A stretch of DNA of 64,000 bases from Gammaproteobacteria bacterium (GTDB taxonomy: Bacteria; Pseudomonadota; Gammaproteobacteria; Eutrophobiales; Eutrophobiaceae). Both the position numbers and the translations under genes were made by a program. The stretch is taken from positions 1,280,001 through 1,344,000 of the forward strand of contig CBDCTH010000012.1 in NCBI GenBank assembly GCA_965222155.1. The letters are read 5' to 3'. Shown here in pieces: positions 10,017 to 35,779 of this stretch (positions within the stretch are counted from its first letter, which is position 1; the number at the start of each line of letters is the position of its first letter). A model generated the notes under the pieces. That model worked only from the letters and a program-made list of their open reading frames with translations, was not told the DNA's origin and made no database searches.

Positions 10017-10033
10017 CGACAGTAGGAACCAAC

Positions 10034-14024: not shown

Positions 14025-14068
14025 GGAAATTTTCCGAATTGACACTGTTTCGAGGATTGCCTTATAAT
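14025..14068 (+). promoter_or_regulatory. Sigma70 promoter of DGR target 1 with upstream GGAA-N3-TTCC palindrome
   Basis: TTGACA(14039)-18 bp-TATAAT(14063); same layout upstream of all three targets. Confidence 0.75.
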
Positions 14069-14111: not shown

Positions 14112-16805
14112 ATGACTTTCGACCACTTACATGCGCTGCCGCCCGGCACGCGCTTTGAGGAATACCGGCTGGATGTGGTGCTGGGCGCCGGGGGCTTCGG
14201 CATCACCTACCGGGCGTACGATGAAAACCTGGACAAGGTCGTGGCCATCAAGGAATACCTGCCTGATTTTGCTACCCGGACGGGGGCCAGCACGGTGGTG
14301 CCCAAATCCAGCACGGACGCTCAGGATTATCATTGGGGTTTGACCCGGTTCCTGGACGAGGCCCGCACCCTGGCGCGGTTCGACCATCCTCACATGAACA
14401 AGGTGCATCGCTTTTTCGAGGCCAACGGCACGGCCTACATGGTGCTGGAGTACATCCACGGCGAGACCCTGGCAAACCGGTTGAGCCGCGAACCGCGCTT
14501 ACCGGAGGAGACTTTGCTGCGGTTGCTGGACGAAGTCTTGTCTGGCCTGGCAGTGATACACGAAGCTAGGTACGTCCACCGTGACATCAAGCCGGGCAAC
14601 CTGATGTTGCGCGAAGAGGACGGGAGTGCGGTGCTGCTGGACTTCGGCGCGGCGCGCCAAGCCGTGGGGCAGCGTTCGCAGCGGTTGACGACGATTTTGA
14701 CACCGGGGTATGCGCCGATTGAGCAGTATGACGGCAAGGTGGACCGCGTCGGCGCGTGGACGGACATCTATGCGTTGGGGATGGTGGCGTACCGGTGTAT
14801 CAGCGGGACCGGTGATGGAGACCTGACGGATGCGGTGGCGCGTAAGCTGGCGCAACACGACGATAACGCGGGACTGGCCTCGGCTGTGGAAGCAGGAAGA
14901 GGCCGGTACAGTCCGAAGTTACTGGCGGCGATTGACTGGGCGATAGAGGTGGATGAGGAGTCTCGGCCGCAGGGGGTGAGTGAGTGGAGCGAGTCACTGG
15001 CCGGGGGGGTGAGCAAGAAACGCACAGCCAGGTCGGCACGCAAGCCCGCGACCCGGTCTGCAAAGCCCCCGACAACGGAGCGCACCGGCATGAGTTGGTC
15101 GAGCATGGCGCTGACGGTAGTGATTGTCGTGCTGCTGGGGGCGAGCGCCTGGCAGGGCTGGCGTTTGTACCAGGGGATGCCCGGGGTTGGCATGGCTGAC
15201 ACCGAAACAACGGCGGAGCCGCAGGCGGGTATTCAGACTGAACCACGAACAGGCACAGAGTCAGATATCCAGCTCGACAGTCCGGCACAGACCGCGCCAG
15301 AAACACCCGACACCAAGTTAGCGTCGGTAGACAGCACAAAGCCGGAAGCGAGCCAGCCGGTTACAGGGCCGAGCGCTTCACCGCCTCCTGAAGAAGATGA
15401 AGTCTCTCGTTTACTGGCGGCAGCCGAGGCCGACATCACGGCGCGGCGCTTGACCAGCCCTGTCGGGAACAATGCCTGGGAGAAGTATCAACGGGTATTG
15501 AGTTTATCCCCTGCCCACCCCGAAGCCATGGCGGGGATGGAGCGGGTGATGGGGAGTTACCTGGAGTTGTTCGGGGCTGCGCTGGAGCAGGAGGATTTTG
15601 ACAAGGCGGGTAGTTACCTGGGACGTATTCGTGAGTTACACCCGGACTCACCGGTGCTGGAGGAAGGTGTGCGCCGTATTGAAACGAGCAAGCAGGAGCA
15701 GGCGGACCGGTTGTCAAGGAGGCAGGCCATTCGGGCACGCCTGGACTCGTTTGAGACGGCGTTACGGCAGGATAAGCTGGACGAGGCGGCGGGTTACCTG
15801 GATCGAATACGCGCCCTGGATGCAAATGCAGCGGGGTTGGCAGAGGGGGAACAGCGTCTTGCCGAGGCCCGGCAGGCGGAGGCGGAGTTGGCGCGGCAAC
15901 GGCAGGCGGAGGCCGGCCGGCATGTAGCGCAGTTTGAGGAAGCGATGCAGGAAGGAGGCCTTGACAAGGCGGCGAGACACATCGCAGGCATTCGTAGATT
16001 ACACCCGGACTGGCCTGAACTGGGGGATGCAGAACAGCGTTTTGCCAAGGCCCGGGAGACAGAGAAGGAACGCCAGCGCAGAGAGGGCGAAGCAAGAGCG
16101 AGGGAACTGGCCGATGAAATGGTCTCGATACCCGCCGGCACGTTCCGCATGGGGGACATGAGTGGCGATGGTCAGAGTGATGAAAAACCGGTCCACCGCG
16201 TAAGGGTGTCGGCCTTCAATCTGGGCAAGTACGAGGTGACGTTTGCCCAATGGGACGCCTGCGTAGCGGACGGGGGTTGTGGCGGTTACCGGCCGGAGGA
16301 TTATGGCAGCGGCCGGGATAATCACCCGGTGATAAACGTCTCCTGGGACTATGTCCAGACGTTCATCTTCTGGTTGAATAAGAAGACCGGCGGTAATTTC
16401 CGCTTGCCGAGCGCGGCGGAGTGGGAGTATGCGGCCCGTGCCGGGAGCAAGACCAAATACTCTTGGGGGAACAGCATCGGCAGCAACCGGGCGAATTGCG
16501 ACGGTTGCGGCAGTCGATGGGATGATGACCGGACTGCGCCGGTGGGGAGTTTCTCTGCCAATGCCTGGGGGTTACATGACATGCACGGCAACGTGTGGGA
16601 GTGGACAGAGGACTGCTGGAACGACAGTTACGCGGGGGCGCCGAGTGACGGCCGCGCCTGGGAACTGGGGAACTGCGGCCGGCGTGTGCGTCGCGGCGGT
16701 TCCTGGAACGACGGGCCGTGGAACCTGCGTTCCGCCAGCCGTGACAGGTTTACCCGCTCGGACCGCCTCAACTTCATCGGCTTCCGCTTGGCCCAGGACA
16801 AGTAG
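14112..16805 (+). CDS. DGR target 1: Ser/Thr kinase - TM - helical repeats - FGE-sulfatase/CLec domain
   Basis: VAIKE, HRDIKPGN and DFG kinase motifs; TM 'MALTVVIVVLLGASAW'; FGE motifs RLPSAAEWEYAARAG, DMHGNVWEW, RGGSW...GFRLA. Confidence 0.93.
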   Translation: MTFDHLHALPPGTRFEEYRLDVVLGAGGFGITYRAYDENLDKVVAIKEYLPDFATRTGASTVVPKSSTDAQDYHWGLTRFLDEARTLARFDHPHMNKVHRFFEANGTAYMVLEYIHGETLANRLSREPRLPEETLLRLLDEVLSGLAVIHEARYVHRDIKPGNLMLREEDGSAVLLDFGAARQAVGQRSQRLTTILTPGYAPIEQYDGKVDRVGAWTDIYALGMVAYRCISGTGDGDLTDAVARKLAQHDDNAGLASAVEAGRGRYSPKLLAAIDWAIEVDEESRPQGVSEWSESLAGGVSKKRTARSARKPATRSAKPPTTERTGMSWSSMALTVVIVVLLGASAWQGWRLYQGMPGVGMADTETTAEPQAGIQTEPRTGTESDIQLDSPAQTAPETPDTKLASVDSTKPEASQPVTGPSASPPPEEDEVSRLLAAAEADITARRLTSPVGNNAWEKYQRVLSLSPAHPEAMAGMERVMGSYLELFGAALEQEDFDKAGSYLGRIRELHPDSPVLEEGVRRIETSKQEQADRLSRRQAIRARLDSFETALRQDKLDEAAGYLDRIRALDANAAGLAEGEQRLAEARQAEAELARQRQAEAGRHVAQFEEAMQEGGLDKAARHIAGIRRLHPDWPELGDAEQRFAKARETEKERQRREGEARARELADEMVSIPAGTFRMGDMSGDGQSDEKPVHRVRVSAFNLGKYEVTFAQWDACVADGGCGGYRPEDYGSGRDNHPVINVSWDYVQTFIFWLNKKTGGNFRLPSAAEWEYAARAGSKTKYSWGNSIGSNRANCDGCGSRWDDDRTAPVGSFSANAWGLHDMHGNVWEWTEDCWNDSYAGAPSDGRAWELGNCGRRVRRGGSWNDGPWNLRSASRDRFTRSDRLNFIGFRLAQDK
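16678..16796 (+). repeat. DGR variable repeat VR1
   Basis: 119-nt match to TR; 16 differences at TR adenines and 1 non-A difference. Confidence 0.95.
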
Positions 16806-16884
16806 ACCGAAGGCATTATGCCAACTATCTGTACGAAACTTTCTATCAGGATTCCCTTTAAACTTTTCCCTTTTTCCCTTTTCT

Positions 16885-16905
16885 GCCCGGCGCATAGCGC
16901 CGGGC
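16885..16905. promoter_or_regulatory. GC hairpin after VR1 (candidate DGR target-recognition cruciform)
   Basis: GCCCGGCGC-ATA-GCGCCGGGC, preceded by a pyrimidine tract shared by all three targets. Confidence 0.7.
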
Positions 16906-16966
16906 CACGATTTTTTTAGGGTTTGCCTGTTCAATCACCTCCCTGACGGAACCCCAATCACACCCC

Positions 16967-19055
16967 TCACGGAGAACAACCTGAGCCTCTGGTTACGTCA
17001 GCTATCATCTGTCTCCATGTATCCAACCACTCCAGACTGCATCGGTACAGTACCGGCTCCCCTGTGTATTCGCGGTGGAAGCATGACTCGAATGCATCAA
17101 TATGGTCATGCATGTCGCCCCACATTTTTTGACATGAAAAAGTTTCGAGATACTCGGGCAAGACAAGATTGTCTGTCCAGTTTTCGAAATCTGCCCGGAC
17201 ATGGGAACAAGGGTCGTCGACGGGATAAAGCTCCGGCGAATCACACGAAGCATTAAGGTCCAGGTCCGATTCGGGTAACGGCCGGTTATCGCCCCTGCCC
17301 CCTGGATTTTCATCCATCGATTCTGCGAGTTGCCTTGCACGTTCCATCCTTATCCATCTCTTCGTAATAGCTGTCTGTCGGATTCGCTGCCTGTTCCCGG
17401 GCGGCCCGGGTTTACCTGTCCAGGTAGGCATTGGCATCCTCTACGCCGCGTTCCAACTGTATCTCGCGATACTCTCGGGCCACGCTCCTGTCCGATCGCA
17501 GCAGGTCGGTCTGCGTCTTGATTTTTTCACGCTCCCTGCGTTCCTGCTCCTGATGGTGCTCTTCAATTTGCGGGGAAATAATATGTTCGTCTATCTCGGA
17601 ACACCAACCTGGTCCCGAACTCCCAGGAAGTCGTCAGCTTCCCGACCACTCCCAGAGCACGCGGCGCGGTCCTCGCTGCTGCGCTGAGCGTGCCCATTCC
17701 CAGCCTGCCCAAAACCTTGCCGATTTGCTTGAGTCCTGTATTCACGACGCTGTCCTCGATTTCCCCTGCAACATAGTCTTGGGATATATCGACCAGCGTA
17801 TCCCGGCAGACCACGCGGTTTGCGGACAGGTTCTCACCGGTGCAGTCTGCAGCGCGGGACATGGCGTCCATGGCGGTCTCCACCCCTTTCGGGTCGACCG
17901 TGTCTCAATCGGCGTGGCGCTGGTCATCCACGCGGGCGCGACCGGCGTCGCGGCATCTGCGGCGCTAAGCCGTTCCCCAGGCACGATCCGGAGTTCGCTG
18001 ATACGGTACGCGGAATCAACCGTGCGCTCCCAGTAAGTCAGCAAGGCGACGTCCAGCAGCGGGTTGTAGTAGAGCGCCGCGGGCGTGGGCGTGTCCGCGG
18101 CGCGTGTTTCGATGACGGCATTCTCAAAAAACGGCCCCCAGGTTTGTTTGAGCACGCTGTTGCGCTGCGCTTCCGTCGCATCCGGCGGCACCAGCCAGCT
18201 TACGCCCGGTATCAGTCCCAGTACCCGCATAGACATATCGTCGCGGTCTACGACCGAGCGGCGTAACGCCGCCGCCTGTCCGGGGAACCCCGGCGTCTCG
18301 GCAGGTTCAGCCTGCGGAACGGCCGCAACGGGAGGGGCTTCGGCCGGCGGGCCGGTAGCTGTCTCCGGCTCTGCCGCTACTGCTTGCGTCACTGTAACCG
18401 GCAGGGCAGCCTGTTCCTGCTCTGTCGGTGGCGTTTCCGGCGGCGCCGTGACCAGGTCGTAGGTCTCGATCAGGCCCAGCCGTCCCCGGACCGCGACAAA
18501 CGAACCCGTATGGGGCAGTTTGAACATGGTGACCGGCTGTTTTGCGCCGGACCCCTTGTCAGTCCAGATCAGGGAACTGGTGACGACTTTTTCCGTGAGG
18601 CTCGCCGGCACACAACGGTAATCTGGCAGGGACGGTTTTTCATATCCTGCCTGGGGAACGCTGCCCAGGCAGCGGTATTGATCGCCGGGCGGGACGGCCC
18701 GCCACATCGAACCGTCCTGCCGCGCCCCGCTGCCCTTGTCCTTCCATATCAATTCCCAGTCTACCGGTACGGCCAGTTGCGCCGAGTCCTTTACTGTCAG
18801 CACACAGTCGACACCGGTTAGTTCCTTTAGGCGGGACCCATAGCCGCCGATAATGAAATACGTCGGCTCTGCAACCGGGAGGTAAAAATAGCCGTCCAGG
18901 TCCGCGCCCGAGCCCTTGTCATCCCAGGTCTTTTCCATGGAGCACGCCGGCCTGGTATCAAGCCGGGCGCCTGTTGCCGTGGGATTGTCAACCTGGGCAA
19001 GAACGCCTGCGGAGATGAACCAGGCAAGGAACAGGAAGCAGGTAGGGCGCATCAT
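16967..19055 (-). pseudogene. Secreted protein with N-terminal Vps62-like domain, fragmented (ORFs 17742-19055, 17563-17883, 16967-17437)
   Basis: Signal peptide; three W.DKGSGA repeats with GYEKP..DYRCV; Pro/Ala linker; downstream ORFs in shifted frames. Confidence 0.55.
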
Positions 19056-19205
19056 CAGTGTTTGTTCAGTTTCCTTAAAGTCCGGTTAGTCCTGCTCATT
19101 CCGGGAATGGGATAGATACACCGGATTGTAGTCAGGTGGCGCTGATGTTGCAAGCTTTGAGGATATCCTGTATGTGGCAAACAACTACTTCGGTCCGAAG
19201 GAAAG

Positions 19206-20839
19206 CAGCTATTCCCGCTAACGCCTGGGTCGTCACGAAATCCCGATAAATACGGGGTTTTTGAGAAGGCTGAAAAAAGGTTTTCGTAAACGTTTGGCAT
19301 TGCTTCAGTATAGTAGGGAGTATTATTCAAGTCAAAAGTGAGGTGAGAAGCCATGTCTCGACCTTCGTTTCGCAAAACTTTGAGTCTCCCCGGTCTGTTA
19401 GCTGAGGTACGTCGTTGTTTTCAAGCCATCCCGGACGGCAAGGTGGGTCGGGGCTTGACCCTGACGGAGTATCTGCTGTCGGGGTTGGCGGTATTCGGTT
19501 TGAAGTACCCGTCATTATTGCAGTTTGATGCAGGCCGTCAGAACGAGGTGGTGCGTTCGAACCTGCGCACGTTATACGGGATTGTGCGGGTCCCCTCGGA
19601 CACGGCGTTGCGTGAGCGGCTGGATGAGGTGGACCCGTCCCGGTTACGGCGGGCGTTCCGGCGGGTGTTACAGGTGTTGCAGTGTGGCAAGGGTCTGGAG
19701 GACTTTCAGTGGTGGGCCGGTCATTACCTGTTATCGGTGGACGGGACGGGCTATTTTTATTCGGACCAGGTGCATTGCGAGCAGTGCTGTGAGACACACC
19801 ACCGGGACGGTCGGGTGAGTTATTATCATCAGTTGTTGGGGGCGGTACTGGTACATCCTGACCAACGTGCGGTGTTGCCGTTAGCACCGGAGCCCCTCTT
19901 ACGTGCGGACGGGGTGGCTAAGAATGACTGTGAGCGCACTGCGGCGTAGCGCTTGCTGACGGACGTGCGGCGCGAGCATCCCCACCTGAAACTGGTTGTA
20001 GTGGAAGATGCGTTGGCGGCCAACGGGCCGCATATCAAGTTATTACAGTCGTTGAAGCTACGTTATATCCTGGGGGTGAAGCCCGGCGACCATGCGTTTC
20101 TGTTTGATTGGGTGGCTACCACGCCGGGGGTGCAGAGCGCGGCGTTGACCGGGGAAGACGGCACCGTGCACCGGTTTCGTTACCTTAACGGTGCGCCGTT
20201 GAACGAGAGTCACTTTGACCTTCAGGTGAACTTCCTGGCGTATGAAGAGCAGCGTCCCTCAGGCAAGGTACGGCATTTTACCTGGGTGACGGATATACCG
20301 TTACACGAGGCCAACCTGCTGCGGGTGATGCGCGGGGCGCGGGCGCGTTGGAAGATTGAGAATGAGACATTCAATACCCTGAAGCACCAAGGCTATCACT
20401 TTGAGCATAACCTCAAGCATGGCTATCAGCACCTGTCCACGGTGCTGGCGTACCTGATGATGCTGGCGTTTCTGGTAGACCAAGTGCAGCAGCACTGCTG
20501 CGGACTGTTTCAACAGGCGTCGGCGAAGGAGAAATATAAACGCTACTTCTGGGAGACGCTGCGCAGCTTCTTCTTCACCTGGCTGCTGCCGGACTGGGAG
20601 ACGTTGTATCGGGCGCTGGCCTATGGCGCTGCCCCGCGCGTGCTGACCCCCTATGATACCTCTTAAGGGTGAGCCGTGACCGGGTAGCTCAAGGCGAGGG
20701 ACTTCAGGGGATACCAAGCTGAATACAGAACACCGGGGACAGCCGGAGGGCCGCCCATCCCCTGCTGGTCGGGTCATTGTGAAAAAAATGAATCTGGCCC
20801 GATAATGCTGCCGATCGCAGGAGTTAGCGGGAACACCTG
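19206..20839 (+). mobile_element. IS element (ISNCY/ISDol1-like) with inactivated transposase
   Basis: TIRs CAGCTATTCCCGCTAAC / GTTAGCGGGAACACCTG; flanking GAAGGAAA duplication (19197, 20840). Confidence 0.8.
19353..20666 (+). pseudogene. DDE transposase with in-frame TAG at 19947
   Basis: LSVDGTGYF, DGVAKNDCE, VEDAL, RARWKIENETFNTLK..GYHFEHN. Confidence 0.85.
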
Positions 20840-20842
20840 GAA

Positions 20843-20886
20843 GGAAATCTTCCGTATTGACACGGTTTCCGGGACTACCTTACAAT
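20843..20886 (+). promoter_or_regulatory. Sigma70 promoter of DGR target 2
   Basis: GGAAATCTTCC, TTGACA(20857)-18 bp-TACAAT(20881). Confidence 0.72.
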
Positions 20887-20926
20887 CCTTAAACGCCTCA
20901 GCACTATAAATTGAGATCACAAACCC

Positions 20927-23491
20927 ATGACCATCGATCACATCCATGCCCTGCCGCCCGGCACCCGCTTTGAGGAATACCGGCTGGATGTGGTGCTGGG
21001 GGCCGGAGGCTTCGGGATTACCTACCGGGCGTACGATGCCCACCTGGACGTGCATGTCGCTATCAAGGAGTACCTGCCCGGGGAGTTTGCAACGCGGTCG
21101 GAGGGCAGCACAGTGGTACCCAAATCCAGCACGGACGTCCAGGATTATCAATGGGGCTTGAGCCGCTTCCTGGACGAGGCCCGTACCCTGGCGCGCTTTG
21201 ACCATCCGCACCTGAACAAGGTGCGCCGCTTTTTCGAGGCCAACGGTACGGCCTACATGGTGCTGGAGTACATTCACGGCGAGACCCTGGCTGCCCGACT
21301 GGGCCGCGATGCGCGCTTGCCGGAAGCGGCGTTGCTGCGCCTGCTGGAAGAAATCCTGTCGGGCCTGGCGGTGATACACAAGGCGGGCTACGTGCACCGG
21401 GACATCAAGCCGGGCAACCTGATGTTGCGGGAAGAGGACGGGAGCGCGGTGCTGCTGGACTTCGGCGCCGCCCGCCAGGCGGTGGGCCAGCGATCCAAGT
21501 CGATCACAAGCATCCTGACCCCGGGCTATGCCCCGATAGAGCAGTATGACAGCAAGGCGGACGACGTGGGGCCGTGGAGCGATATCTATGCGTTGGGCAT
21601 GGTGGCCTACAAGTGTATCAGCGGGACGGGTGACGGGGCGTTGCCGGATGCGGTGACGCGAGGCCGGGCACAGCGCAAGGGCGGGGTGGACCTGGCCTCG
21701 GCGGCGGTAGCGGGCAAGGGCCGGTACAGTCCGAAGTTATTGGAAGCGATAGACTGGGCGATTGAGGTGGATGAGGAGGCCCGTCCGCAAGGGGTAGCTG
21801 AGTGGTTGGAAGCATTGGCGGGGGGTAGTAGCAAGCATCGTAAAACCGGCACCGGGCACAAGCCCGCGACCCGGCCTGCAAAGGCCCCGGCGACCGAGCG
21901 CACCGGCATGAGTTGGTCGAGCATGGCGCTGACGGCGGTGATTGTCGTGCTGCTGGGGGCGAGCGCCTGGCAGGGCTGGCGGCTATACCGGGGTATGCCG
22001 GTGGTTACCCCGGATGAAACGACCACCATGGCGGAGTCACAGGATGAATCACAGACAGACAGGGAATCAGACCCACAAACAACAGGGACACCGGTGGACA
22101 CAGGGTCGGACAGTCCGGCGGAGACTGCACCAGTTATGTCCGAAACTGAGCCAGTAGCGTCGGCGGACAGCGCAGCAGCGCAGCAACCGGCGGCGGACCC
22201 GGCCAAGGATGCGCCTGCTGAAGAAGACGAGGTAACCCGGTTGCTGGCGGGGGCTGATGCGGACATCACGGCGTGGCGCTTGACCAGCCCTGTCGGAAAC
22301 AACGCCTGGGAGAAGTATCAACGGGTACTGAGTTTATCGCCGACGCACCCGGCGGCCATGGCGGGGATGGAGCGGGTTATAGGGAGTTATATGGCGTTAT
22401 TCGGGGCGGCGCTGGAGCAGGAGGACTTTGACCAGGCTGACAGTTACCTTGAGCGTATCCGCGCCCTGCACCCGGACTCCCCTGCTCTGTTGACGGGGAA
22501 AAAGCAGTTGGAAGTGGCCAAACAGGCGCGTGCCGAGCGTCTGGCTGAGCAGGAGAGGCAACGTCAGGCGGAGGAAGCGGCGCGCCAGGCGGAACTGGAG
22601 CAGCAACGCATTGCCCGTGCCATTGAGGGACATTGGGAAGCGTTTGAGACTGCAATGCAGCGGGATGGGTGGGATGAGGCGGCGGGTAACCTCAATCAGG
22701 TACGCGACCTGAATCCCGATGAGCCGGGTCTGGCAACAGGGGAGCGGCGTCTGGCAGCGGCGCGGGAGGCCGCCCGGCAGAAGGCGCTGCAATATGTCGG
22801 TGAAATGGTCTCGATACCCGCCGGCACGTTCCGCATGGGGGACATGAGTGGCGATGGTCAGAGTGATGAAAAACCGGTCCACCGCGTAAGGGTGTCGGCC
22901 TTCAATCTGGGCAAGTACGAGGTGACGTTTGCCCAATGGGACGCCTGCGTAGCGGACGGGGGTTGTGGCGGTTACCGGCCGGAGGATTATGGCAGCGGCC
23001 GGGATAATCACCCGGTGATAAACGTCTCCTGGGACTATGTCCAGACGTTCATCTTCTGGTTGAATAAGAAGACCGGCGGTAATTTCCGCTTGCCGAGCGC
23101 GGCGGAGTGGGAGTATGCGGCCCGTGCCGGGAGCAAGACCAAATACTCTTGGGGGAACAGCATCGGCAGCAACCGGGCGAATTGCGACGGTTGCGGCAGT
23201 CGATGGGATGATGACCGGACTGCGCCGGTGGGGAGTTTCTCTGCCAATGCCTGGGGGTTACATGACATGCACGGCAACGTGTGGGAGTGGACAGAGGACT
23301 GCTGGAACGACAGTTACGCGGGGGCGCCGAGTGACGGCCGCGCCTGGGAACTGGGGAACTGCGGCCAGCGTGTGATTCGCGGCGGTTCCTTGTTCCACGG
23401 ACCGGGGGGCCTGCGTTCCGCCTCCCGTGGCTGGAATACCCGCTCGTACCGCGGCTCCTACATCGGCTTCCGCTTGGCCCAGGACAAGTAG
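20927..23491 (+). CDS. DGR target 2: Ser/Thr kinase - TM - helical repeats - FGE-sulfatase/CLec domain
   Basis: Paralog of 14112-16805 with intact kinase motifs and an apparently identical FGE domain. Confidence 0.93.
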   Translation: MTIDHIHALPPGTRFEEYRLDVVLGAGGFGITYRAYDAHLDVHVAIKEYLPGEFATRSEGSTVVPKSSTDVQDYQWGLSRFLDEARTLARFDHPHLNKVRRFFEANGTAYMVLEYIHGETLAARLGRDARLPEAALLRLLEEILSGLAVIHKAGYVHRDIKPGNLMLREEDGSAVLLDFGAARQAVGQRSKSITSILTPGYAPIEQYDSKADDVGPWSDIYALGMVAYKCISGTGDGALPDAVTRGRAQRKGGVDLASAAVAGKGRYSPKLLEAIDWAIEVDEEARPQGVAEWLEALAGGSSKHRKTGTGHKPATRPAKAPATERTGMSWSSMALTAVIVVLLGASAWQGWRLYRGMPVVTPDETTTMAESQDESQTDRESDPQTTGTPVDTGSDSPAETAPVMSETEPVASADSAAAQQPAADPAKDAPAEEDEVTRLLAGADADITAWRLTSPVGNNAWEKYQRVLSLSPTHPAAMAGMERVIGSYMALFGAALEQEDFDQADSYLERIRALHPDSPALLTGKKQLEVAKQARAERLAEQERQRQAEEAARQAELEQQRIARAIEGHWEAFETAMQRDGWDEAAGNLNQVRDLNPDEPGLATGERRLAAAREAARQKALQYVGEMVSIPAGTFRMGDMSGDGQSDEKPVHRVRVSAFNLGKYEVTFAQWDACVADGGCGGYRPEDYGSGRDNHPVINVSWDYVQTFIFWLNKKTGGNFRLPSAAEWEYAARAGSKTKYSWGNSIGSNRANCDGCGSRWDDDRTAPVGSFSANAWGLHDMHGNVWEWTEDCWNDSYAGAPSDGRAWELGNCGQRVIRGGSLFHGPGGLRSASRGWNTRSYRGSYIGFRLAQDK
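23364..23482 (+). repeat. DGR variable repeat VR2
   Basis: 119-nt match to TR; 19 differences at TR adenines and 1 non-A difference. Confidence 0.95.
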
Positions 23492-23570
23492 ACCGAAGGC
23501 ATTATGCCAACTATCTGTACGAAACTTTCTATCAGGATTCCCTTTAAACTTTTCACTTTTTCCCTTTTCT

Positions 23571-23591
23571 GCCCGGCGCACAGCGCCGGGC
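23571..23591. promoter_or_regulatory. GC hairpin after VR2
   Basis: GCCCGGCGC-ACA-GCGCCGGGC. Confidence 0.7.
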
Positions 23592-23848
23592 TGCGATTTT
23601 TTCAGGAGTTACCCATACAAATTCCTGCACCGACCTGAAATTCCCTCATATTTTCCAATTCACGTAACTTAACTAGAAAAAGTCCACCACAACCGCGACT
23701 CATTTCTAAAACCGTATTTCTAAAACCGTATTACTTATAGACAAACCCCCCATACTTGATTAGCATAAGTCACAAGGAGGGGCTACCGTAAACGTTGATC
23801 CCGTTACAAAGCGTCAGTCTGACATTCTCATGCGAACGCCAACCGTCC

Positions 23849-24256
23849 ATGTCCAGGATTCGTTGTTATATCGTCGGGCGTGACCCCTCCGCATCCATCG
23901 TCCTGCAGCATGAGACGGTGTCGCGCAGGCATGCAGAACTGATTCCCGTGTCCGGCGGGCAGGTATACGTGACGGACTGCGCCAGCACCTGCGGGACTTT
24001 TATCGATAAAGGCGGCCGTTGGGAGAAAGTCAGCCAGGATTTCGTCAGCGCCGGAGGCAGGGTACGCTTCGGCGACGTAGAGGTTAGCGTGCAGAGTTTG
24101 CTGGCCGATATTGCCCGCCTGCCTGCCGGCGATGGAGCGGCTCCCGGCGGTTCGGCAGATCCCGGGGGTTCCCCAGGTGTTGATAAGAAGAAACAGGTGG
24201 ATGCCAGCCACGGGGTCGTGCGCGACCCCGACACGGGGGAGCCGATCGCCATGTGA
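23849..24256 (+). CDS. FHA domain protein
   Basis: IVGRD...VSRRHAEL...VTDCASTCGTFI. Confidence 0.85.
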   Translation: MSRIRCYIVGRDPSASIVLQHETVSRRHAELIPVSGGQVYVTDCASTCGTFIDKGGRWEKVSQDFVSAGGRVRFGDVEVSVQSLLADIARLPAGDGAAPGGSADPGGSPGVDKKKQVDASHGVVRDPDTGEPIAM

Positions 24257-24271
24257 TCGGATTGACAGACC

Positions 24272-25075: not shown

Positions 25076-25181
25076 TGCGCGGCGCTTGTGAATTCCGCCG
25101 ACCGGACGGGCCTGTAATTTGAATACGCCGTGTTTGTCTGTTAAATTTTAATGCACTGAAAACTGCGAAGGGGAGAAAATC

Positions 25182-25844
25182 ATGCCGGTAAAACGCGACG
25201 CGGACGGGAATATCATCGAGGAAAAGACAAGAATCGCCGGGGGGTTCGATCAGGTTTCACCGACGTTAGCGGGGCAATCACCCGTTGGCGCCACGGTCGG
25301 TCCCGGCAAAAACCCCCAGTCCGATCCTGGCCGGCAATCGGGTTATGAGGCCCAGACGGTCCTGGCAGGCTCAACCCGCGCCGCCGGTGGGGAAGCCAAG
25401 ACCAGGATATACCGGCCCGGCAGGACGGAGCGGGGGCAGCCGGGGACGACGTTGTCAAGTACGGATACTGAGGATTCGCCGTCCGCTGCCATGGACGACC
25501 CGCCGGTAGGGTGGCTGGTTGTCATCAAGGGGCCGGGACAGGGGAATTTCATGGCCGTCGGCAACGGTTCGAATTCGGTCGGACGCGATGAGGGCGAGCG
25601 CGTCCGTGTAGATTTTGGCGACGAGATGATCTCCCGTAGCGGCCATTCGGCGATTACCTACGACCCCAGGGGCAAGAAGTTTTACCTGCAACACGGCGCT
25701 GGAAAAAATCTGACTTACCTGGAGGGCAATCCGGTCCTGTCGCCGACGGAACTGTCCAGATTCTCCCGGATCACCATAGGGAACACCGAATTACTGTTCG
25801 TCCCGCTCTGCTGCGAACAGTTCGACTGGGATGAATATACGTAA
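25182..25844 (+). CDS. FHA domain protein with Thr-rich disordered N-terminus
   Basis: PVGWLVVIKGPGQG...NSVGR...ISRSGHSAITYDP...NLTYL. Confidence 0.82.
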   Translation: MPVKRDADGNIIEEKTRIAGGFDQVSPTLAGQSPVGATVGPGKNPQSDPGRQSGYEAQTVLAGSTRAAGGEAKTRIYRPGRTERGQPGTTLSSTDTEDSPSAAMDDPPVGWLVVIKGPGQGNFMAVGNGSNSVGRDEGERVRVDFGDEMISRSGHSAITYDPRGKKFYLQHGAGKNLTYLEGNPVLSPTELSRFSRITIGNTELLFVPLCCEQFDWDEYT

Positions 25845-25853
25845 CAGGTCATT

Positions 25854-26837
25854 ATGAATGCCGTCAAGCAGTGGGTGGCAGGGGAGCAAATCCAGGGGGA
25901 CCGAAATTACCAGGAAGACGATTTCTCGATTCGCCTTCTGTTTCAAGACCGGGACTCTCTGGATGAGGACCAGCTGCTGCTCGTGCTGGCCGACGGCATG
26001 GGCGGCCATGCCGGCGGCGCCGTTGCCAGCAAGACGGTAGTCCAGGCTTTCCAGGAGGGCTTCTACCGGAATGCGTCCGGCATCGCAGAACGCTTCAATG
26101 CCGGCATTGAAACCGCCAACAACGCCGTTAAGGAAAAGCAACTAGCCGACCTGAACCTGTCCGAAATGGGCTGCACCCTGGTCGCCGCATTGGTTGTCGG
26201 GTCGAGTCTTTACTGGACCAGTGTCGGCGACTCCATACTGTGGCTGTTCAGGCAGAACCGCCTGCAGCGGCTGAATGCGGATCATTCCATGAAGCCCCTG
26301 CTACTGGACCTGGTTGAGTTGGGTAGGATGACCGAAGAAGAGGCCTTGAGCGATTCCAGGATCAACCAGTTGCGCTCGGCCATCTTTGGCGAGGAGGTCC
26401 CGTTAATCGACATGAACGCGGACGGTTTCCAGTTGGAAGCCGGCGATCTGATTTTGCTGGCCACTGATGGCCTTGAAACCCTGTCGGAGGAAGGAATGGC
26501 GGATGTCATCAAGGCAGGCGCAAACGATGCCGATGAGATAGTGAACGCCCTGCTTGACGCCGTCGCCATGGCGGGCGTGCGCGGACAGGACAACACCACG
26601 GCGCTGGTGTACCGGGTTGGTGAGGGGAATGATTCACTGCACGGCGCGCTGGCTGGTATAAGCGCAACTGGCCAGGGAGCCGGTTTCGAGCAACAGATTA
26701 AACCCTCCCGGACATGCGAGATTCGTCCTGAACAGGATGGAGAAGCTCCGGAAAAGCGACCGGGGATTTTCGCCAGAATTATGCACGCCTTTTCGGGTAA
26801 GCCTGCGCAGGAAAACACACGGGGAAAAACGCAATGA
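25854..26837 (+). CDS. PP2C/PPM Ser/Thr phosphatase
   Basis: RNYQED, LADGMGGHAGG, MGCTL, VGDS, LATDGL, DNTT. Confidence 0.93.
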   Translation: MNAVKQWVAGEQIQGDRNYQEDDFSIRLLFQDRDSLDEDQLLLVLADGMGGHAGGAVASKTVVQAFQEGFYRNASGIAERFNAGIETANNAVKEKQLADLNLSEMGCTLVAALVVGSSLYWTSVGDSILWLFRQNRLQRLNADHSMKPLLLDLVELGRMTEEEALSDSRINQLRSAIFGEEVPLIDMNADGFQLEAGDLILLATDGLETLSEEGMADVIKAGANDADEIVNALLDAVAMAGVRGQDNTTALVYRVGEGNDSLHGALAGISATGQGAGFEQQIKPSRTCEIRPEQDGEAPEKRPGIFARIMHAFSGKPAQENTRGKTQ

Positions 26838-30160: not shown

Positions 30161-30173
30161 TGCAGGAGAACCT

Positions 30174-30998
30174 GTGAGGTTACGCAGTAAGGAGATCAAT
30201 GTCTTCAACATGTCCGCGCTGGACCTGTTTGCCTCCGCGCTGGGCGCTTTTATCCTGATCTCCGTTGTCCTGTTTCCCTATTTCCCCAATACGGGCGATT
30301 CACAGGAGCGCGTGGATGATGTCAAGGCGCAGTTGGAACAGGCCAATGCCGAGCTGGAGGAAACCAGCGCGGAACTGGAACAGACCAGCACCGAACTGGA
30401 AGAAGTCCGTGCGCAATTGAACCCCAACCTTCAACAGGAACTGCAGGCCGTGCGGGGACAACTCGGTTCCTGTGAGACCGAGCGCCGGGAAGCACAGGCC
30501 GCCCTCAATTCCTGCCAGACAGAGCAGCGACAGGCCGCATCGATGAATTCAGCTCTCGGCGCCTGCGAGAGCCGCAACCAGCAGATGCAGCAGGAACTTC
30601 AATCGTGTGAAACACAACTGCGCAAGAAATTCGTACTGGTCGTGATCAGCTGGGGTACGCCGGATGACATTGATCTGCACGTGACCGACCCGGCCGGGCG
30701 GGAGTTCTTTTTCGGGCGCAAATACCACTCCGGTTCCCTGGCGAAACTGGAAGAGGACAACACCCGCGGCCCCGGCAACGAAATCTGGCTACACCCGGCC
30801 GCGGAGCCCGGCAGGTACCAGGTGCACTATAAATATTTTAGGGGATCGGGCGACAGTGTATCGGTACGTGGCGCGGTGCTGACGCCGCGCGGCAGGACGG
30901 AGTTACCGGGAACGACCTTGAGGTACGTCGACGACAAGCCCCTGGTTGCTACCGTTATAGTCGATGATGAGGGCTACGCCGAAGTAATAGCGAGGTAG
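30174..30998 (+). CDS. ExbD/MotB-like N-terminal TM (conserved Asp), coiled coil, YfaP/DUF2135-like C-terminal domain
   Basis: 'FNMSALDLFASALGAFILI' TM with Asp; 'ISW...DIDLHVTDPAG...DNTRGPGNE' motif. Confidence 0.62.
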   Translation: MRLRSKEINVFNMSALDLFASALGAFILISVVLFPYFPNTGDSQERVDDVKAQLEQANAELEETSAELEQTSTELEEVRAQLNPNLQQELQAVRGQLGSCETERREAQAALNSCQTEQRQAASMNSALGACESRNQQMQQELQSCETQLRKKFVLVVISWGTPDDIDLHVTDPAGREFFFGRKYHSGSLAKLEEDNTRGPGNEIWLHPAAEPGRYQVHYKYFRGSGDSVSVRGAVLTPRGRTELPGTTLRYVDDKPLVATVIVDDEGYAEVIAR

Positions 30999-31009
30999 TG
31001 ATAGTGCCG

Positions 31010-31053
31010 GGAATTCTTCCGCATTGACACGGCTTCGCTGGCCGTCTTACAAT
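31010..31053 (+). promoter_or_regulatory. Sigma70 promoter of DGR target 3
   Basis: GGAATTCTTCC, TTGACA(31024)-18 bp-TACAAT(31048). Confidence 0.72.
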
Positions 31054-31093
31054 CCATAACCACCCGAGCGCCATAACCGGAGACTGACATCCC

Positions 31094-33038
31094 ATGACCA
31101 TCGACCACCTGCATGCCTTGCCCCTTGGCACGCATCTTGAGGAATTCAGACTGGATGCGCAGTTGGGCGCCGGGGGGTTCGGGATTACCTACCGGGCGCA
31201 TGATGAACTCCTGGACAAGGTGGTGGCCATCAAGGAATACCTCCCGAGGGATTTTGCCACCCGCACTGCCGGCAACACGGTGGCGCCCATATCCGATGCA
31301 GATGCAAGGGACTATCAATGGGGCTTGACCCGGTTTCTGGACGAGGCCCGCACCCTGGCCCGTTTTAAGCACCCGCACCTGAATCAGGTCTATCGTTTCT
31401 TTGAGTCCAACGGCACGGCCTACATGGTGCTGGAGTACGTTCACGGTGAGACGCTGGCAGACCGGTTGAGCAGGGAGCCATTTTTAGAAGAAGCGGACTT
31501 ACAACGTGTGCTTGATGAAGTTTTGTCAGGTCTGGGAGTCATGCACGAGGCCGGTTACGTCCACCGGGACATCAAGCCGGGCAATCTGATGTTGCGCGAG
31601 GAGGACGGGAGTGCTGTGGTGCTGGATTTCGGTGCCGCCCGTCAGGCGGTGGGGCAGCGTTCCAAGCCTATTACCAGCATCTTAACCCCGGGGTATGCCC
31701 CGGTGGAGCAGTATGACGGCAAGGTAGACCGCGTCGGCGCCTGGACGGACATTTATGCATTAGGGATGGTGGCGTACCGCTGTATCAGTGGGCTGGGGGA
31801 TAGTGAGTTACCCGATGCAGTGGCGCGGATGCTGGCGCACACCAGGAGAGAAGCAGTATTACTCCCTGCCATAGAGGCAGGTAAGGGCAGATACAGTCCC
31901 AAGCTGTTGGAAGCGATAGATTGGGCGATGGAAGTGAACGAACATGACCGGCCGCAGAGTGTGGACGCATGGCGTCAAGCCCTGACCGGGGGCACTCGCA
32001 GGAAGAGTCCAACGAAGTCTGTACGAAAGCCCGCAACCCAACCGACAAGAGGCACAACAACCGAGCGCACTGGGACGCGTTGGTCCAGTGTGGCGCTGAC
32101 ACTGGTGATAGTAGTAGGGGCCTTGCTGGGCGCTGGCGCCTGGTGGGGTTGGCAGGCATATCCTGAGTGGTTTGGGCAGGGTCCCGGAGGTTCTCCGCCG
32201 GTAGTGAAGCAGGCAGCGCCGGTAGAGATAGAGACAGTGACACCGGATGCAACAGAGACCGGGGAACTGGAGCGTAAGCGACAGGAAGCTCTGGAGAGAG
32301 AATTAGTTGGTGAAATGGTATCCATCCCCGGCGGCACGTTTCGCATGGGGGACTTGGGTGATAAAGGTGATGATGACGAGAGACCGGTGCACAGCGTGAC
32401 GGTACCAGCTTTCAATATGGGAAAGTATGTAGTGACATTTACCCTGTGGGACACTTGTGTTGCGGACGGGGGCTGCGGTCGTTACCGGCCGGATGATGAG
32501 GGTTGGGGCCGGGGCAATCGGCCGGTGATAAATGTCTCCTGGGACGATGCCCAGGGATACATTGACTGGTTGAATGACAAGACCGGCGGTAATTTCCGCT
32601 TGCCGAGCGAGGCGGAGTGGGAGTACGCAGCCCGTGCCGGGAGCACCACGAAGTACCACTATGGCAACAGTGAGTCACAGCTGTGCCGGTATGCCAATCA
32701 TGCAGACAGCAGCACGGATATGGACTGGCGGAACAAGGCCTGTTCTGACGGTGTCGGCATAGGCACTGCTGCGGTGGGTCGCTATCAGCCGAACAGTTAT
32801 GGACTTTACGACATGCACGGCAACGTGTGGGAGTGGACAGAGGACTGCTGGAACGACAGTTACGCGGGGTCGCCGAGCGACGGCCGCGCCTGGGAACTGG
32901 GGGACTGCGGCCGGCGTGTGGTTCGCGGCGGTTCCTGGGACTTCTTTCCGTGGGTACCTGCGTTCCGCCTTCCGTAACTGGTATACCCGCTCGGACCGCA
33001 GCAGCAACGTCGGCTTCCGCTTGGCCCAGGACAAGTAG
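31094..33038 (+). CDS. DGR target 3: Ser/Thr kinase - TM - FGE/CLec domain; +1 frameshift inside the VR (ORF as read ends 32977)
   Basis: Kinase and FGE motifs; the cognate ...GFRLAQDK* end lies in another frame after an extra G at 32952-32954. Confidence 0.88.
32910..33029 (+). repeat. DGR variable repeat VR3
   Basis: Match to TR with 18 differences, all at TR adenines, plus one inserted base. Confidence 0.95.
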
Positions 33039-33118
33039 GACGAAGGCGAGATACGATGCAGGTTGAGCAGGGCTGTCTGCCGGGATTCCCTTTAAACTTT
33101 TCCCTTTTTCCCTTTTCT

Positions 33119-33139
33119 GCCCGGCGCATAGCGCCGGGC
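33119..33139. promoter_or_regulatory. GC hairpin after VR3
   Basis: GCCCGGCGC-ATA-GCGCCGGGC. Confidence 0.7.
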
Positions 33140-33167
33140 CGTTTTTATTATTTATAGGAGTCCCGTT

Positions 33168-33521
33168 ATGCAAACCACAGATACAAACTTACCCCAGGTC
33201 ATCGATGATTGTCATGAACTGCTCAAATGGCTGATACCGTTGCTGGACAAGTTCCCCCGCGCCCGGCGCTTCACTCTGGGGGAGCGCCTGGAATCCGGCC
33301 TGCTGGCCGTCCTTGAAGAGTGTATTGACGCCGCCTATAGCAAGCACAAGCGCACCCAACTCAGTGCCGCTAACCGGCGCCTGGCCTCCGTCCGGCACCT
33401 GTGGCGCCTGGCCTATGAACTGCGGGTGATACCCCGGAATCGTTACTATCATGGGAGTCAGCGACTGGTGGGCATCGGCATACAAATCGGCGCCTGGCAG
33501 AAATCACGGGCGGCGGGTTGA
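33168..33521 (+). CDS. avd: DGR accessory variability determinant (Avd, four-helix bundle)
   Basis: LLKWLIPLLDKFPRARRFTLGERL...IGAW; basic 117 aa protein directly upstream of the RT. Confidence 0.9.
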   Translation: MQTTDTNLPQVIDDCHELLKWLIPLLDKFPRARRFTLGERLESGLLAVLEECIDAAYSKHKRTQLSAANRRLASVRHLWRLAYELRVIPRNRYYHGSQRLVGIGIQIGAWQKSRAAG

Positions 33522-33524
33522 GAC

Positions 33525-34607
33525 ATGCACCGTATCGGGCGCATCTGGGAACAAGTGGTTACCATGGATAACCTCTATTCGGCATATTGCAAGGCCAGGA
33601 AGGGCAAACGTCGCAGGCCGGACGTGGCGCATTTCAGCCTGGAGCTGGAGCAGAACTTGCTGGTGCTTCAGCAGGAACTGATAACCGGCACATATACCCC
33701 TGGCGCCTACCGGCAGTTCACCGTCTATGAGCGCAAACCCCGGTTGATATCAGTCGCGCCGTTCCGGGACCGGGTGGTGCACCATGCCGTCATGCACGTC
33801 CTGGAACCCTTGCTGGACAAACGCTTCATCCCGGACACCTACGCCTGCCGCAAGGATAAGGGCGTGCACCGGGCGGTGGACCGTTATCAGCAGTTTGCCC
33901 GGGATAACGCTTACGTATTAAAACTGGATATTGCCCGCTATTTTCCCTCCATAGACCGGACCATACTGAAACAGCAACTGGCCCGGCGCATCAAGGATAA
34001 ATATGTCCTGGACTTGTTGCACAGGATTATCGACAACGGGCCCGAAACAGACGTGCCGGTCCGGTTTTTTCCCGGCGATGACCTGGTCGCCGTCAGCGAG
34101 CGACAGCGCGGGCTGCCCATCGGCAACCTGACCAGTCAGTTTTTCGCCAACCTGTACCTGGACGAGTTCGACCACTGGTTGAAAGAGTCCCAACGAGTGA
34201 AGGGCTATCTGCGTTACGTGGATGACCTCTACTTGCTGGACAATGATAAACAAAGGCTGTGGGCGCTACGGGACGTAGTCGCTGATAAACTGCAGGAAAT
34301 CAGGTTGATATTGCACGCTGACAAAACCCAAATTTATCGTACGACGGAACGCGTGGACGTGTTGGGTTACAGACTGTCCCGTTATCGGCGCTGGCTGCGC
34401 AATGACAACGGCTTCCGGTTCCGGCGCCGGTTAAGACACATGAGCAGTATGTATCGGGAAGGACAGATAGACTGGCCAACCCTGAATGCTTTGGTACAAA
34501 GCTGGATTGGGCATGCCCGTCATGCCGAGACGGAGGGGTTGCGGGAGGTGATATTCAGTCGGGTCAGTTTTTGCAGAGGAGCGGGCCAGAGCGAAGCCAG
34601 CGTGTGA
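33525..34607 (+). CDS. DGR reverse transcriptase
   Basis: PFRDRVVHHA, LKLDIARYFPSID, GLPIGNLTSQFFANLYL (DGR-type SQ motif), RYVDD; intact. Confidence 0.95.
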   Translation: MHRIGRIWEQVVTMDNLYSAYCKARKGKRRRPDVAHFSLELEQNLLVLQQELITGTYTPGAYRQFTVYERKPRLISVAPFRDRVVHHAVMHVLEPLLDKRFIPDTYACRKDKGVHRAVDRYQQFARDNAYVLKLDIARYFPSIDRTILKQQLARRIKDKYVLDLLHRIIDNGPETDVPVRFFPGDDLVAVSERQRGLPIGNLTSQFFANLYLDEFDHWLKESQRVKGYLRYVDDLYLLDNDKQRLWALRDVVADKLQEIRLILHADKTQIYRTTERVDVLGYRLSRYRRWLRNDNGFRFRRRLRHMSSMYREGQIDWPTLNALVQSWIGHARHAETEGLREVIFSRVSFCRGAGQSEASV

Positions 34608-34714
34608 TTCGCGGCGGTTCCTGGAACAACAAACCGAGGAACCTGCGTTCCGCCAACCGTAACAGGAATACCCGCTCGAACCGCAACAACAACATCGGCT
34701 TCCGCTTGGCCCAG
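34596..34714 (+). ncRNA. DGR template repeat (TR)
   Basis: A-rich (30 A; nine AAC codons in VR frame) copy of the three VRs, overlapping the RT stop codon. Confidence 0.95.
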
Positions 34715-34775
34715 TCCGCCCGTTGCCCGGAGTGGCCGTTTTCACGGAAACGGCCAGCGCGGCAGACGGGTGTCC
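34715..34775 (+). ncRNA. Structured spacer 3' of TR (candidate DGR RNA priming region)
   Basis: TGGCCGTTTT-CACG-GAAACGGCCA hairpin within a possible longer stem. Confidence 0.45.
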
Positions 34776-35229
34776 ATGAGCCTGCTTCCGGGTTGGGCAG
34801 GGAAGCCCGGGCAAATAGCGCTGTGAGGAAGATAAGGCCGAGGCGAGTAACGGGTGCGAAAGTCTCGGTGATGGGCTTTAAGCTTGGCGTAAATCACCGC
34901 ACCAGGCAGGAGGCTTCCCCCTGCTACCCGCAATATCTGTAATCAGGCGCGTCCAAGGGCATCGGGTGTTCCCGTTAAATCGCTGAGACGGCGATTATGA
35001 CGGTCAGATTTTCCCGGACTGTGTCCAATCCAGGGAAATGCAGGTCTTCTCAATCACCCAGCCCCCAAGTTATGCCTTGTTCATGTGGTTATATTGGGGT
35101 AACACGTTCATCTTCCCGGCTGCTTTTCTGTCGGCAGAGTCCGGAGAAAGGCTGGTATTGCGTATTTACAAAATATTTTGTACTAACCAATGGATGAATC
35201 TTGTAAATCGTCTAACGGTTAACATTTTT

Positions 35230-35760: not shown

Positions 35761-35779
35761 GAGACCTCGGAGCGCAGAC

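Follow-up and report, generated by a model that had tools for sequence, protein, structure and literature searches.

Hypervariable receptor kinases around an FHA/PP2C/MotA-like operon in a gammaproteobacterium: a candidate signalling module

Assembly GCA_965222155.1 of a Gammaproteobacteria bacterium (Eutrophobiales; Eutrophobiaceae) contains, on contig CBDCTH010000012.1, a locus in which a diversity-generating retroelement (DGR) adjoins genes for receptor kinases and for a putative membrane motor. We analysed 64,000 nt of the forward strand of this contig (1,280,001-1,344,000; hereafter the window), in which the locus occupies positions 14,112-34,775; all coordinates are window positions unless prefixed. 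Gene content was taken from the open reading frame (ORF) list and a Pfam scan of the ORFs. A cassette of an avd gene, a reverse transcriptase (RT) gene and a template repeat (TR) lies next to three genes with the layout kinase, transmembrane (TM) segment and FGE domain, referred to here as targets 1 to 3 (T1-T3), and a co-oriented block of seven genes is located between T2 and T3 (Table 1). Gene content, predicted topology, the adenine-specific changes in the variable regions (VRs) and the conserved synteny were computed directly. In our reading, to which we assign a probability of about 0.6, the locus is one signalling module of three layers, with hypervariable receptors as input, FHA proteins and a PP2C phosphatase for relay and reset, and an ion motor as output.

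In all three targets Pfam places a kinase domain at the N-terminus and an FGE-sulfatase domain at the C-terminus, with a single hydrophobic segment just C-terminal of the kinase domain, as a first-pass annotation made from the sequence alone had proposed. The features of Hanks-type kinases, namely the Gly-rich loop (GAGGFG), the VAIK lysine, the HRD catalytic loop (HRDIKPGN) and DFG, are intact in T1, T2 and T3 and conserved in an alignment of 87 kinase sequences. The TM segment of T1 is preceded by nine Lys or Arg residues and followed by one, and because of this bias the positive-inside rule predicts that the kinase is cytoplasmic and that the FGE domain is outside, a topology on which the earlier interpretation had been staked. 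The juxtamembrane stretch of the kinases is Thr-rich. The stalk described earlier corresponds to a real segment between TM and FGE, but in T1 it is a Pro/Thr-rich linker followed by helical repeats of about 60 aa. The FGE domain runs to the C-terminus in T1 and T2 and is truncated in T3. Each kinase gene is preceded by a sigma-70-like promoter, that of T1 within a 63-nt repeat found upstream of all three, and is followed by a terminator-like hairpin with a 9-bp G-C stem; promoters and terminators alike sit inside repeats common to the three genes. Because each gene has its own near-consensus promoter and its own terminator, the kinases are separate cassettes placed around the operon.

The DGR cassette is intact, in line with the earlier claim: bAvd and RVT_1 domains were found, the RT keeps the IGNLTSQ and YVDD motifs, which we take to be the signature of a DGR-type RT, and the TR was located where it overlaps the 3' end of the RT gene. 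Aligned with the TR, VR1, VR2 and VR3 have 16, 19 and 18 changes at adenines, exactly the counts given before, and the TR-adenine share of all differences is 16/17, 19/20 and 18/19, respectively. The TR and the three VRs are identical at their G+C-rich 3' end up to GGCCCAG, which resembles an initiation of mutagenic homing (IMH) site, and diverge right after it. The locus shows structural features of a DGR, namely a DGR-type RT with Avd, adenine-specific differences between TR and VRs, an IMH-like end and VRs at the C-terminus of a C-type lectin (CLec)/FGE domain. Read in the VR frame, the TR has 18 variable codons, from which we computed about 1e17 protein variants per receptor; one AAA codon could mutate to a stop. 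Four further RVT_1 matches, at window positions 2745-3401 and at three places elsewhere in the genome (G000), have one or two TAG stops each and are probably group II intron RTs.

Recent activity of the DGR is suggested by a comparison of T1 with T2. Over 754 nt (16115-16868) the two genes show 23 differences, all within the VR and 21 of them at TR adenines, and they are identical for 566 nt upstream and 94 nt downstream of the VR. Because the divergence is confined to the VR, T1 and T2 were apparently homogenised recently, with only the VR changing since. We also aligned Logan contigs of four sequencing runs (X1-X3 among them), which give no allele frequencies, to 22000-34790. The only X2 contig over mid-VR3 differs at 32942, 32943 and 32956 and lacks one base at 32955, and all four places align to TR adenines; with a depth of 25 against about 150 for the flanks, this single contig lends weak support to a variant allele and, in the same measure, to recent activity. 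No listed long contig spans VR2 or VR3, which heterogeneity of the VRs or the paralogous repeats could explain and which we did not count as evidence. The earlier statement that all three targets end in a VR holds for T1 and T2, but T3 as assembled is truncated by a 1-nt insertion in VR3 that shifts the frame, so that the ORF ends at 32977 and the remainder of the VR is read in the next frame to a TAG. The X2 contig, without the extra base, reads in frame. Since a consensus over mixed VR alleles can create such an indel, the frameshift may be an assembly artefact. One more VR-like copy of the TR, remote from the three VRs, lies outside the window (G000:C12:443888-444006); it has 21 adenine and 6 other changes, is not within any ORF of at least 150 aa, and is probably the remnant of a lost target.

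The seven genes of the block are separated by gaps of -4 to 106 nt. Pfam confirmed the earlier roster of two soluble and two membrane-anchored FHA proteins, a PP2C phosphatase, a MotA/ExbB-like protein and its partner, and added a trypsin-like domain that had been overlooked in one of the membrane FHA proteins. FHA1 keeps the canonical residues of FHA domains and, at its C-terminus, a conserved motif of the VRRNPxTGEII type (37-sequence alignment). The canonical serine motif of trypsins is GxSGxP. It is absent from the trypsin-like domain of the window protein and from 25/25 aligned homologues, a Ser being one residue off in four sequences of the alignment, and the domain is probably a pseudo-protease. 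In the coiled-coil FHA gene, 21 nt are missing at 29192 in runs X1, X2 and X3, within a region of 21-nt repeats, indicating a repeat-number polymorphism. A complex prediction for the MotA-like protein with FHA1 scored 0.00 in both runs, which says nothing either way. Because the block encodes four FHA proteins and a PP2C phosphatase but no kinase of its own, the kinase that it requires must be encoded elsewhere.

The MotA-like protein combines a MotA_ExbB domain with conserved Thr and Pro in the predicted pore-lining helices (P180, T181, T187, T223 and T224 are invariant in the alignment), features of the A-subunits of 5:2 ion motors. Its model has a predicted local distance difference test score (pLDDT) of 81.6, and the top structural matches are all ExbB, TolQ, MotA, ZorA and PomA chains, at the modest level of E 2e-3 and TM-scores of 0.4-0.6 (ZorA, 0.52/0.59). 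The first-pass annotation had paired it with an Asp-containing protein, and this proposal gained support: Asp17 in the single TM helix of the partner, which is encoded together with the channel gene as expected of a B-subunit, is invariant in 16/16 full-length homologues. The AlphaFold2 model of the partner (mean pLDDT 74, above 90 in the head) shows a long helix and then a beta-sandwich, whose best structural matches belong to the TerD family (E 1.7e-4, TMt about 0.5). By structure match the head is not an OmpA-like (MotB) or ExbD/TolR-type periplasmic domain, and Pfam found no family match in residues 151-274; residues 6-91 match a ZorB1/MotB profile weakly. Against PDB sequences, profiles built for the MotA-like family and for the partner produced nothing beyond marginal matches to PomA/TolQ (E 0.57) and noise from coiled coils. 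A DUF2135-like identity of the head, our first guess, was supported by no analysis and was dropped. Among 71 partner-homologous ORFs, 16 align over the whole protein including the head and 55 over the N-terminal part only, indicating that the helix is conserved everywhere among the homologues and the head is not. Two of the loci described below (L026 and L027) have two partner paralogues, and the window has a single partner gene. From these comparisons, the MotA-like protein has a credible Asp-bearing partner in the 274-aa protein, whose aspartate helix most likely sits in the channel pore.

Table 1. Features of the locus and its surroundings (window coordinates)
Feature	Position	Strand	Details
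Sigma-70-like promoter of T1	14039..14068	+	TTGACA-18-TATAAT, 12/12
T1, receptor Ser/Thr kinase, 897 aa	14112..16805	+	Kinase, TM 326-344, linker and helical repeats, FGE/CLec; Pfam Pkinase and FGE-sulfatase
VR1 (in T1)	16678..16796	+	Versus TR: 16 changes at adenines, 1 at T
Terminator-like hairpin after T1	16885..16905	+	9 G-C pairs; conserved 3' of all three targets
Vps62-domain protein	17742-19055	-	N-terminal hydrophobic segment; between T1 and T2
IS-like element, not part of the system	19206..20839	+	22-nt terminal inverted repeats, two ORFs; just upstream of T2 promoter
Promoter of T2	20857..20886	+	11/12 consensus
T2, receptor Ser/Thr kinase-TM-FGE, 854 aa	20927..23491	+	Pfam, TM prediction, kinase motifs
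VR2 (in T2)	23364..23482	+	Versus TR: 19 changes at adenines, 1 at G
Terminator-like hairpin after T2	23571..23591	+	Shared repeat
FHA1, small soluble FHA protein	23849..24256	+	ORF opens 23795; conserved start 23849; Pfam FHA
MotA/ExbB/TolQ-superfamily channel subunit, 267 aa	24272..25075	+	Pfam MotA_ExbB, E 1.4e-10
FHA2, soluble FHA protein	25182..25844	+	Pfam FHA; conserved N-terminal Thr-bearing motif, disordered linker
PP2C-type Ser/Thr phosphatase	25854..26837	+	Pfam PP2C; NCBIfam Stp1 family, E 6e-41
Trypsin-like/FHA membrane protein, 695 aa	26834..28921	+	Signal/TM, Trypsin_2, coiled coil, TM 528-546, cytoplasmic FHA
Coiled-coil FHA membrane protein, 412 aa	28922..30160	+	N-terminal signal-like segment, repeat-rich coiled coil, TM 249-267, cytoplasmic FHA
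Candidate motor partner, 274 aa	30174..30998	+	TM helix with Asp17, long helix 45-149, TerD-like beta-sandwich 154-273
Promoter of T3	31024..31053	+	11/12 consensus
T3, receptor Ser/Thr kinase-TM-short linker-FGE, 627 aa as assembled	31094..32977	+	Frameshift inside VR truncates ORF
VR3 (in T3)	32910..33029	+	Versus TR: 18 changes at adenines and a 1-nt insertion near 32951-32955
Terminator-like hairpin after T3	33119..33139	+	Shared repeat
DGR accessory protein Avd	33168..33521	+	Pfam bAvd, E 4e-17
DGR reverse transcriptase	33525..34607	+	RVT_1; IGNLTSQ at 199-205, YVDD at 231
TR	34596..34714	+	30 adenines; 10 AAC and 1 AAT codons in VR frame
Conflict-type neighbours	8446-11365, 35230-37404, 43493-44647, 49514-57283		Family scans of window ORFs

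If the kinases and the block work together, they should stay together in other genomes, and this was also the outcome on which the first-pass annotation had rested its case. We searched 22 genomes of the same genus and, for comparison, 18 from other genera. The MotA-like protein has full-length orthologues (58-95% identity) in 9/22 same-genus genomes; none at this level of identity was found in the 18 other-genus genomes, where the best match has an E-value of 6e-18. All nine same-genus loci have matches to FHA2, PP2C and the kinase, and seven each to FHA1 and FGE, one locus ending within a kinase. Matches to kinases of this clade were obtained in 12/22 same-genus genomes. Where the motor is present as well, almost every kinase paralogue detected maps to within about 25 kb of it. 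Most members of the genus also encode a second MotA/ExbB paralogue (33% identity; here at G000:C12:3314011-3317468), which in this genome is about 2.3 kb from another FGE-domain gene.

Beyond the genus we scanned one genome per species, retrieved 370 relatives of the MotA-like protein and kept the best 80 loci, some of them short contigs, which were searched by tblastn with the window proteins (E up to 1e-4). These loci are labelled as belonging to Gammaproteobacteria, Binatia, Latescibacterota, Gemmatimonadota, Acidobacteriota and one Rhodospirillales metagenome-assembled genome (MAG), and several come from MAGs named after sponge-associated taxa. The partner, by its N-terminal part, is matched in 70 of the 80 loci, the kinase in 55, FHA2 in 53, PP2C in 50 and FHA1 in 49, whereas the trypsin-like part and FGE are matched in 18 each and Avd and the RT in two each. 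Gene order is conserved across loci. A functional link between kinases and block, as a prediction backed by this synteny, is well supported.

What varies among the related kinases is the outer part. We examined 83 post-kinase parts (after codon 300), namely that of T1 and those of 82 kinase ORFs from the 80 loci. These loci hold 93 such ORFs in all, of which 11, short or partial, were dropped. Pfam assigned Ank to 24, FGE-sulfatase to 19, Sel1 to eight, PG_binding_1 to seven, and LRR and PDZ to two each, so that the clade resembles a receptor family whose protein-binding heads can be exchanged. A small Sel1-repeat protein is encoded just upstream of T1 (13453-13938), and Sel1 is thus found both beside T1 and as an outer domain of related kinases.

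DGRs, by comparison, are scarce. A search of the window and 89 loci for adenine-biased repeat pairs returned only the window, L031 and L054, the latter two both from Latescibacterota. In L054 the order is FGE target, bAvd, RT, TR, PP2C, motor block and a VR-bearing kinase-FGE gene, and its RT is 49% identical to that of the window. The recurrence of the DGR-kinase-motor arrangement in L054 supports the module reading. The same-genus genome G009 (loci L013 and L102; G009:C1:3405001-3445000) has six tandem kinase genes of 870-1250 aa beside the motor block, several of the kinases being followed by two FGE-domain matches, together with two Avd remnants and no RT, and resembles a receptor array from which the DGR has disappeared. 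The DGR thus appears to be a rare mobile accessory that joined this module more than once. It is present at our locus, as first described, but is an accessory of few lineages and not a defining part of the system: the module is old and spread across several phyla, with exchangeable binder domains on its kinases, and the DGR is a lineage-specific diversifier of one binder.

The surroundings of the locus bear on how it was assembled. The stretch of kinases, motor and DGR looks, from its composition, like an acquired island. Between T1 and T2, the earlier description had missed both an insertion sequence (IS) element and a Vps62-like gene; the latter was not found in the same-genus loci with the window query. 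The two ORFs of the IS have no family match in Pfam or NCBIfam, a copy 82% identical to it lies at G000:C12:1153955-1155577, and partial copies occur on other contigs. Decayed copies of the kinase cassette are present at G000:C12:3475667-3476789, 1017980-1018453 and 2069427-2070711 and comprise a kinase-only copy (72-80% identity), an FGE fragment and N-terminal kinase fragments. The flanks of the island carry AbiEii, a HipA-like kinase, an Abi_2 fragment, AbiEi-like/DUF6088, Fic, and a type I restriction system with GmrSD. These conflict-type genes, seen in this one window, are a hint of a role in conflict.

Several known systems share parts with this locus. Zorya is an anti-phage system whose ZorAB motor is a MotAB-like pair of the 5:2 type outside flagella and the Tol/Ton systems, with a long ZorA tail, a peptidoglycan (PG)-binding ZorB, and ZorC/ZorD. 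The locus resembles it in having a MotAB-like 5:2-type pair, possibly in a conflict role, and PADLOC profiles for ZorA2 and ZorB1 match weakly (E 7e-6 and 9e-5). Across the 10 proteins scanned, PADLOC made no defence-system assignment and otherwise returned generic kinase and RT matches. We rejected Zorya as an identity, since the MotA-like protein, at 267 aa, has no long ZorA tail, the partner has no PG-binding ZorB domain, and no ZorC/ZorD profile matched among the same 10 proteins. A second parallel is the actinobacterial cluster fhaA-fhaB-pstP-rodA-pbpA-pknA-pknB, in which FHA proteins (one of them membrane-anchored), a PP2C phosphatase and receptor kinases are likewise clustered; NCBIfam FhaB/FipA matches were also obtained here. 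The window, however, has a motor pair in place of the SEDS/PBP genes, and variable binder domains instead of PASTA on the kinases.

The nearest working precedent, by analogy, is the threonine phosphorylation pathway of the P. aeruginosa H1 type VI secretion system (H1-T6SS; TagQ/TagR, PpkA, PppA and Fha1; PMC13713981), in which, as that source outlines it, a membrane machine is regulated by an FGE-fold sensor in the periplasm together with a Hanks kinase in the membrane, a phosphatase of the PP2C type and an FHA reader. Compared with the pathway so outlined, the window has a hypermutated FGE domain that forms part of the kinase itself, a set of four FHA proteins, and a MotA-like motor as the candidate output. 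The locus as a regulator of a T6SS was rejected, since the window ORFs that we scanned include no T6SS family, the search being confined to the window. Ser/Thr kinase-CLec proteins diversified by DGRs have been published from cyanobacteria (Vallota-Eastman et al. 2020, PMC7517822) and from multicellular bacteria (Dore et al. 2024, PMC10907252). As their main texts describe them, they share with our targets an N-terminal Hanks-type kinase, a C-terminal FGE/CLec domain with the VR, several paralogous targets per TR and an Avd-RT-TR cassette. The cyanobacterial kinases are described there as mostly predicted to be cytosolic, whereas those of the window are predicted single-pass receptors with the VR outside the cytoplasm and, unlike the kinases in those main texts, they sit around a conserved FHA/PP2C/motor operon. 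The terms FHA and MotA are absent from both main texts and PP2C from that of PMC7517822, a statement that does not extend to their supplementary target lists.

The motor has a parallel in Williams-Jones et al. 2025 (PMC12204202), where TolQ-like pentamers are predicted to pair with trans-pore-helix (TPH) partners that bear the Asp and carry von Willebrand factor A (vWA) heads. The window pair resembles the motors of that main text in its TolQ/MotA-like gene without adjacent tolR/exbD, the conserved Thr in the channel helices, and a partner with a single conserved-Asp helix and a large periplasmic head. It differs from them in that the head is TerD-like on a helix of about 100 residues instead of vWA, and that there is one partner gene instead of a heterologous pair. 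Kinase and phosphatase do not occur in the main text of PMC12204202, whose single match to 'FHA' is FhaC. A link between DGRs and conflict systems is drawn by Kaur et al. 2020 (PMC7159879), in a main text from which the terms MotA and ExbB are absent; we rejected the vWA-MoxR/NTPase conflict system described there as an identity for our locus, as the block has no MoxR-vWA or GTPase thresholding component. The literature searched holds no description of the full DGR-kinase-FHA-PP2C-motor combination, although the supplements of PMC12204202, PMC7517822 and PMC10907252 may list related loci. The earlier statement that this is not a described system is therefore right for the whole, but not for its parts, as the main texts of PMC7517822 and PMC10907252 already report DGR kinases and that of PMC12204202 predicts the TolQ-like/Asp-helix motor core. 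The whole is a new combination of known parts.

We infer how such a module might operate, including each protein-protein step, the stoichiometry of the motor and the biological role. As input, three single-pass kinases would expose an FGE/CLec fold outside the cytoplasm and keep their catalytic domains inside, with the DGR rewriting the outer binding surface. Ligand binding would cluster the kinases, which would then phosphorylate FHA2, their own Thr-rich juxtamembrane stretch, or both. As binders of phospho-threonine, the four FHA proteins, two of them soluble and two anchored in the membrane, would dock and relay the signal, and once docked would switch on or localise an ion-driven motor that acts on the envelope. 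This output would be the divergent MotA/TolQ-type channel with its Asp-helix partner, which is predicted to extend a helical stalk and TerD-like beta-sandwich into the periplasm, and the PP2C phosphatase would reset the system by switching the motor off. The most likely role is to monitor the periplasm or envelope for variable protein ligands of invaders or of a host; an immune-like reading is possible. More tentatively, the kinase arrays of several phyla could represent a general design in which outer binders, either swapped (ankyrin, Sel1, LRR or FGE) or in a few lineages hypermutated by a DGR, detect protein ligands at the envelope and gate, through phospho-threonine/FHA adaptors, a proton-driven 5:2 motor with a TerD-like or vWA head, providing an evolvable route from recognition to mechanical output, against invaders or for recognition of the host.

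A number of observations weigh against a single module. Each kinase is its own transcription unit, so co-regulation with the block is not implied, and T3 is frameshifted as assembled. Genome G017, which is 94% complete, has nine kinase matches and no MotA orthologue with the window query, and G011, G014 and G016 have one kinase match each without a MotA orthologue, G011 being incomplete, the G014 match containing two internal TAG stops, and the G016 match being partial. An RT orthologue was found in 1/10 same-genus genomes searched (G018, 80% identity), and there the DGR is 1.8 Mb from the motor and its FGE target has no kinase match in the locus. Most Gemmatimonadota loci contain the motor pair without kinase, FHA or PP2C matches. 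Kin genomes are not independent, and the locus counts overstate the number of independent events. Finally, G+C content is 58-62% at 12-34.8 kb (12001-34800) against about 50% in the flanks, and with the IS this means that adjacency could partly reflect the assembly of an island.

Together these points could be taken to mean that kinases and block are neighbours and not partners, a mobile DGR-kinase cassette having landed beside an unrelated envelope-signalling operon while the kinases act on other substrates. The individual promoters and terminators, the decayed cassette copies scattered across the genome, the IS between T1 and T2, the island-like G+C content, the nine kinases of G017 and the remote DGR of G018 with its non-kinase target would all fit. 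We nevertheless consider mere adjacency improbable, as kinases of the clade flank the block in 9/9 same-genus and 55/80 cross-phylum loci, a block with four FHA proteins and a PP2C phosphatase calls for a kinase from elsewhere, and L054 repeats the arrangement in another phylum.

A different question is what an integrated module would do. The MotA-like channel could leak ions, depolarise the membrane and halt growth of the attacked cell in an abortive, Zorya-like response, and the weak ZorA2/ZorB1 profile matches, the rank of ZorA among the best structural matches and the toxin-antitoxin, Abi and restriction genes around the island are what one would expect of it. We regard such an output as unlikely to a similar degree, because ZorC, ZorD and the long ZorA tail are missing, the elaborate conserved periplasmic stalk and head of the partner would be superfluous for a mere leak, and the defence neighbours are known from one window. 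That the DGR is a decaying relic, its VRs frozen scars and the kinases now ordinary fixed receptors, is the least probable alternative: the frameshifted VR3, the remote VR-like remnant with its non-adenine changes and no large ORF, and the Avd remnants without RT among the six kinase-FGE genes of G009 are outweighed by open Avd and RT genes with their motifs kept, by T1 and T2 differing solely within the VR over 754 nt, by the variant VR3 allele in run X2, and by a TR that retains its AAC and AAT codons.

On the preferred reading, that of one signalling module, the locus fills a gap on two sides. The papers that catalogue DGR-diversified kinases name, in their main texts, no downstream partners (PMC7517822, PMC10907252), and the locus offers testable candidates, namely four FHA proteins, a PP2C phosphatase and a motor pair, conserved with the kinase clade across phyla. 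TolQ-like/Asp-helix motors in turn gain a candidate control input, here in a natural case of a hypervariable one. The outer ankyrin, Sel1, LRR and FGE domains, together with the sponge-associated names of several MAGs, may bear on how symbionts recognise hosts or invaders, and the arrangement of kinases and block suggests a sensor that can evolve and that feeds into a membrane machine.

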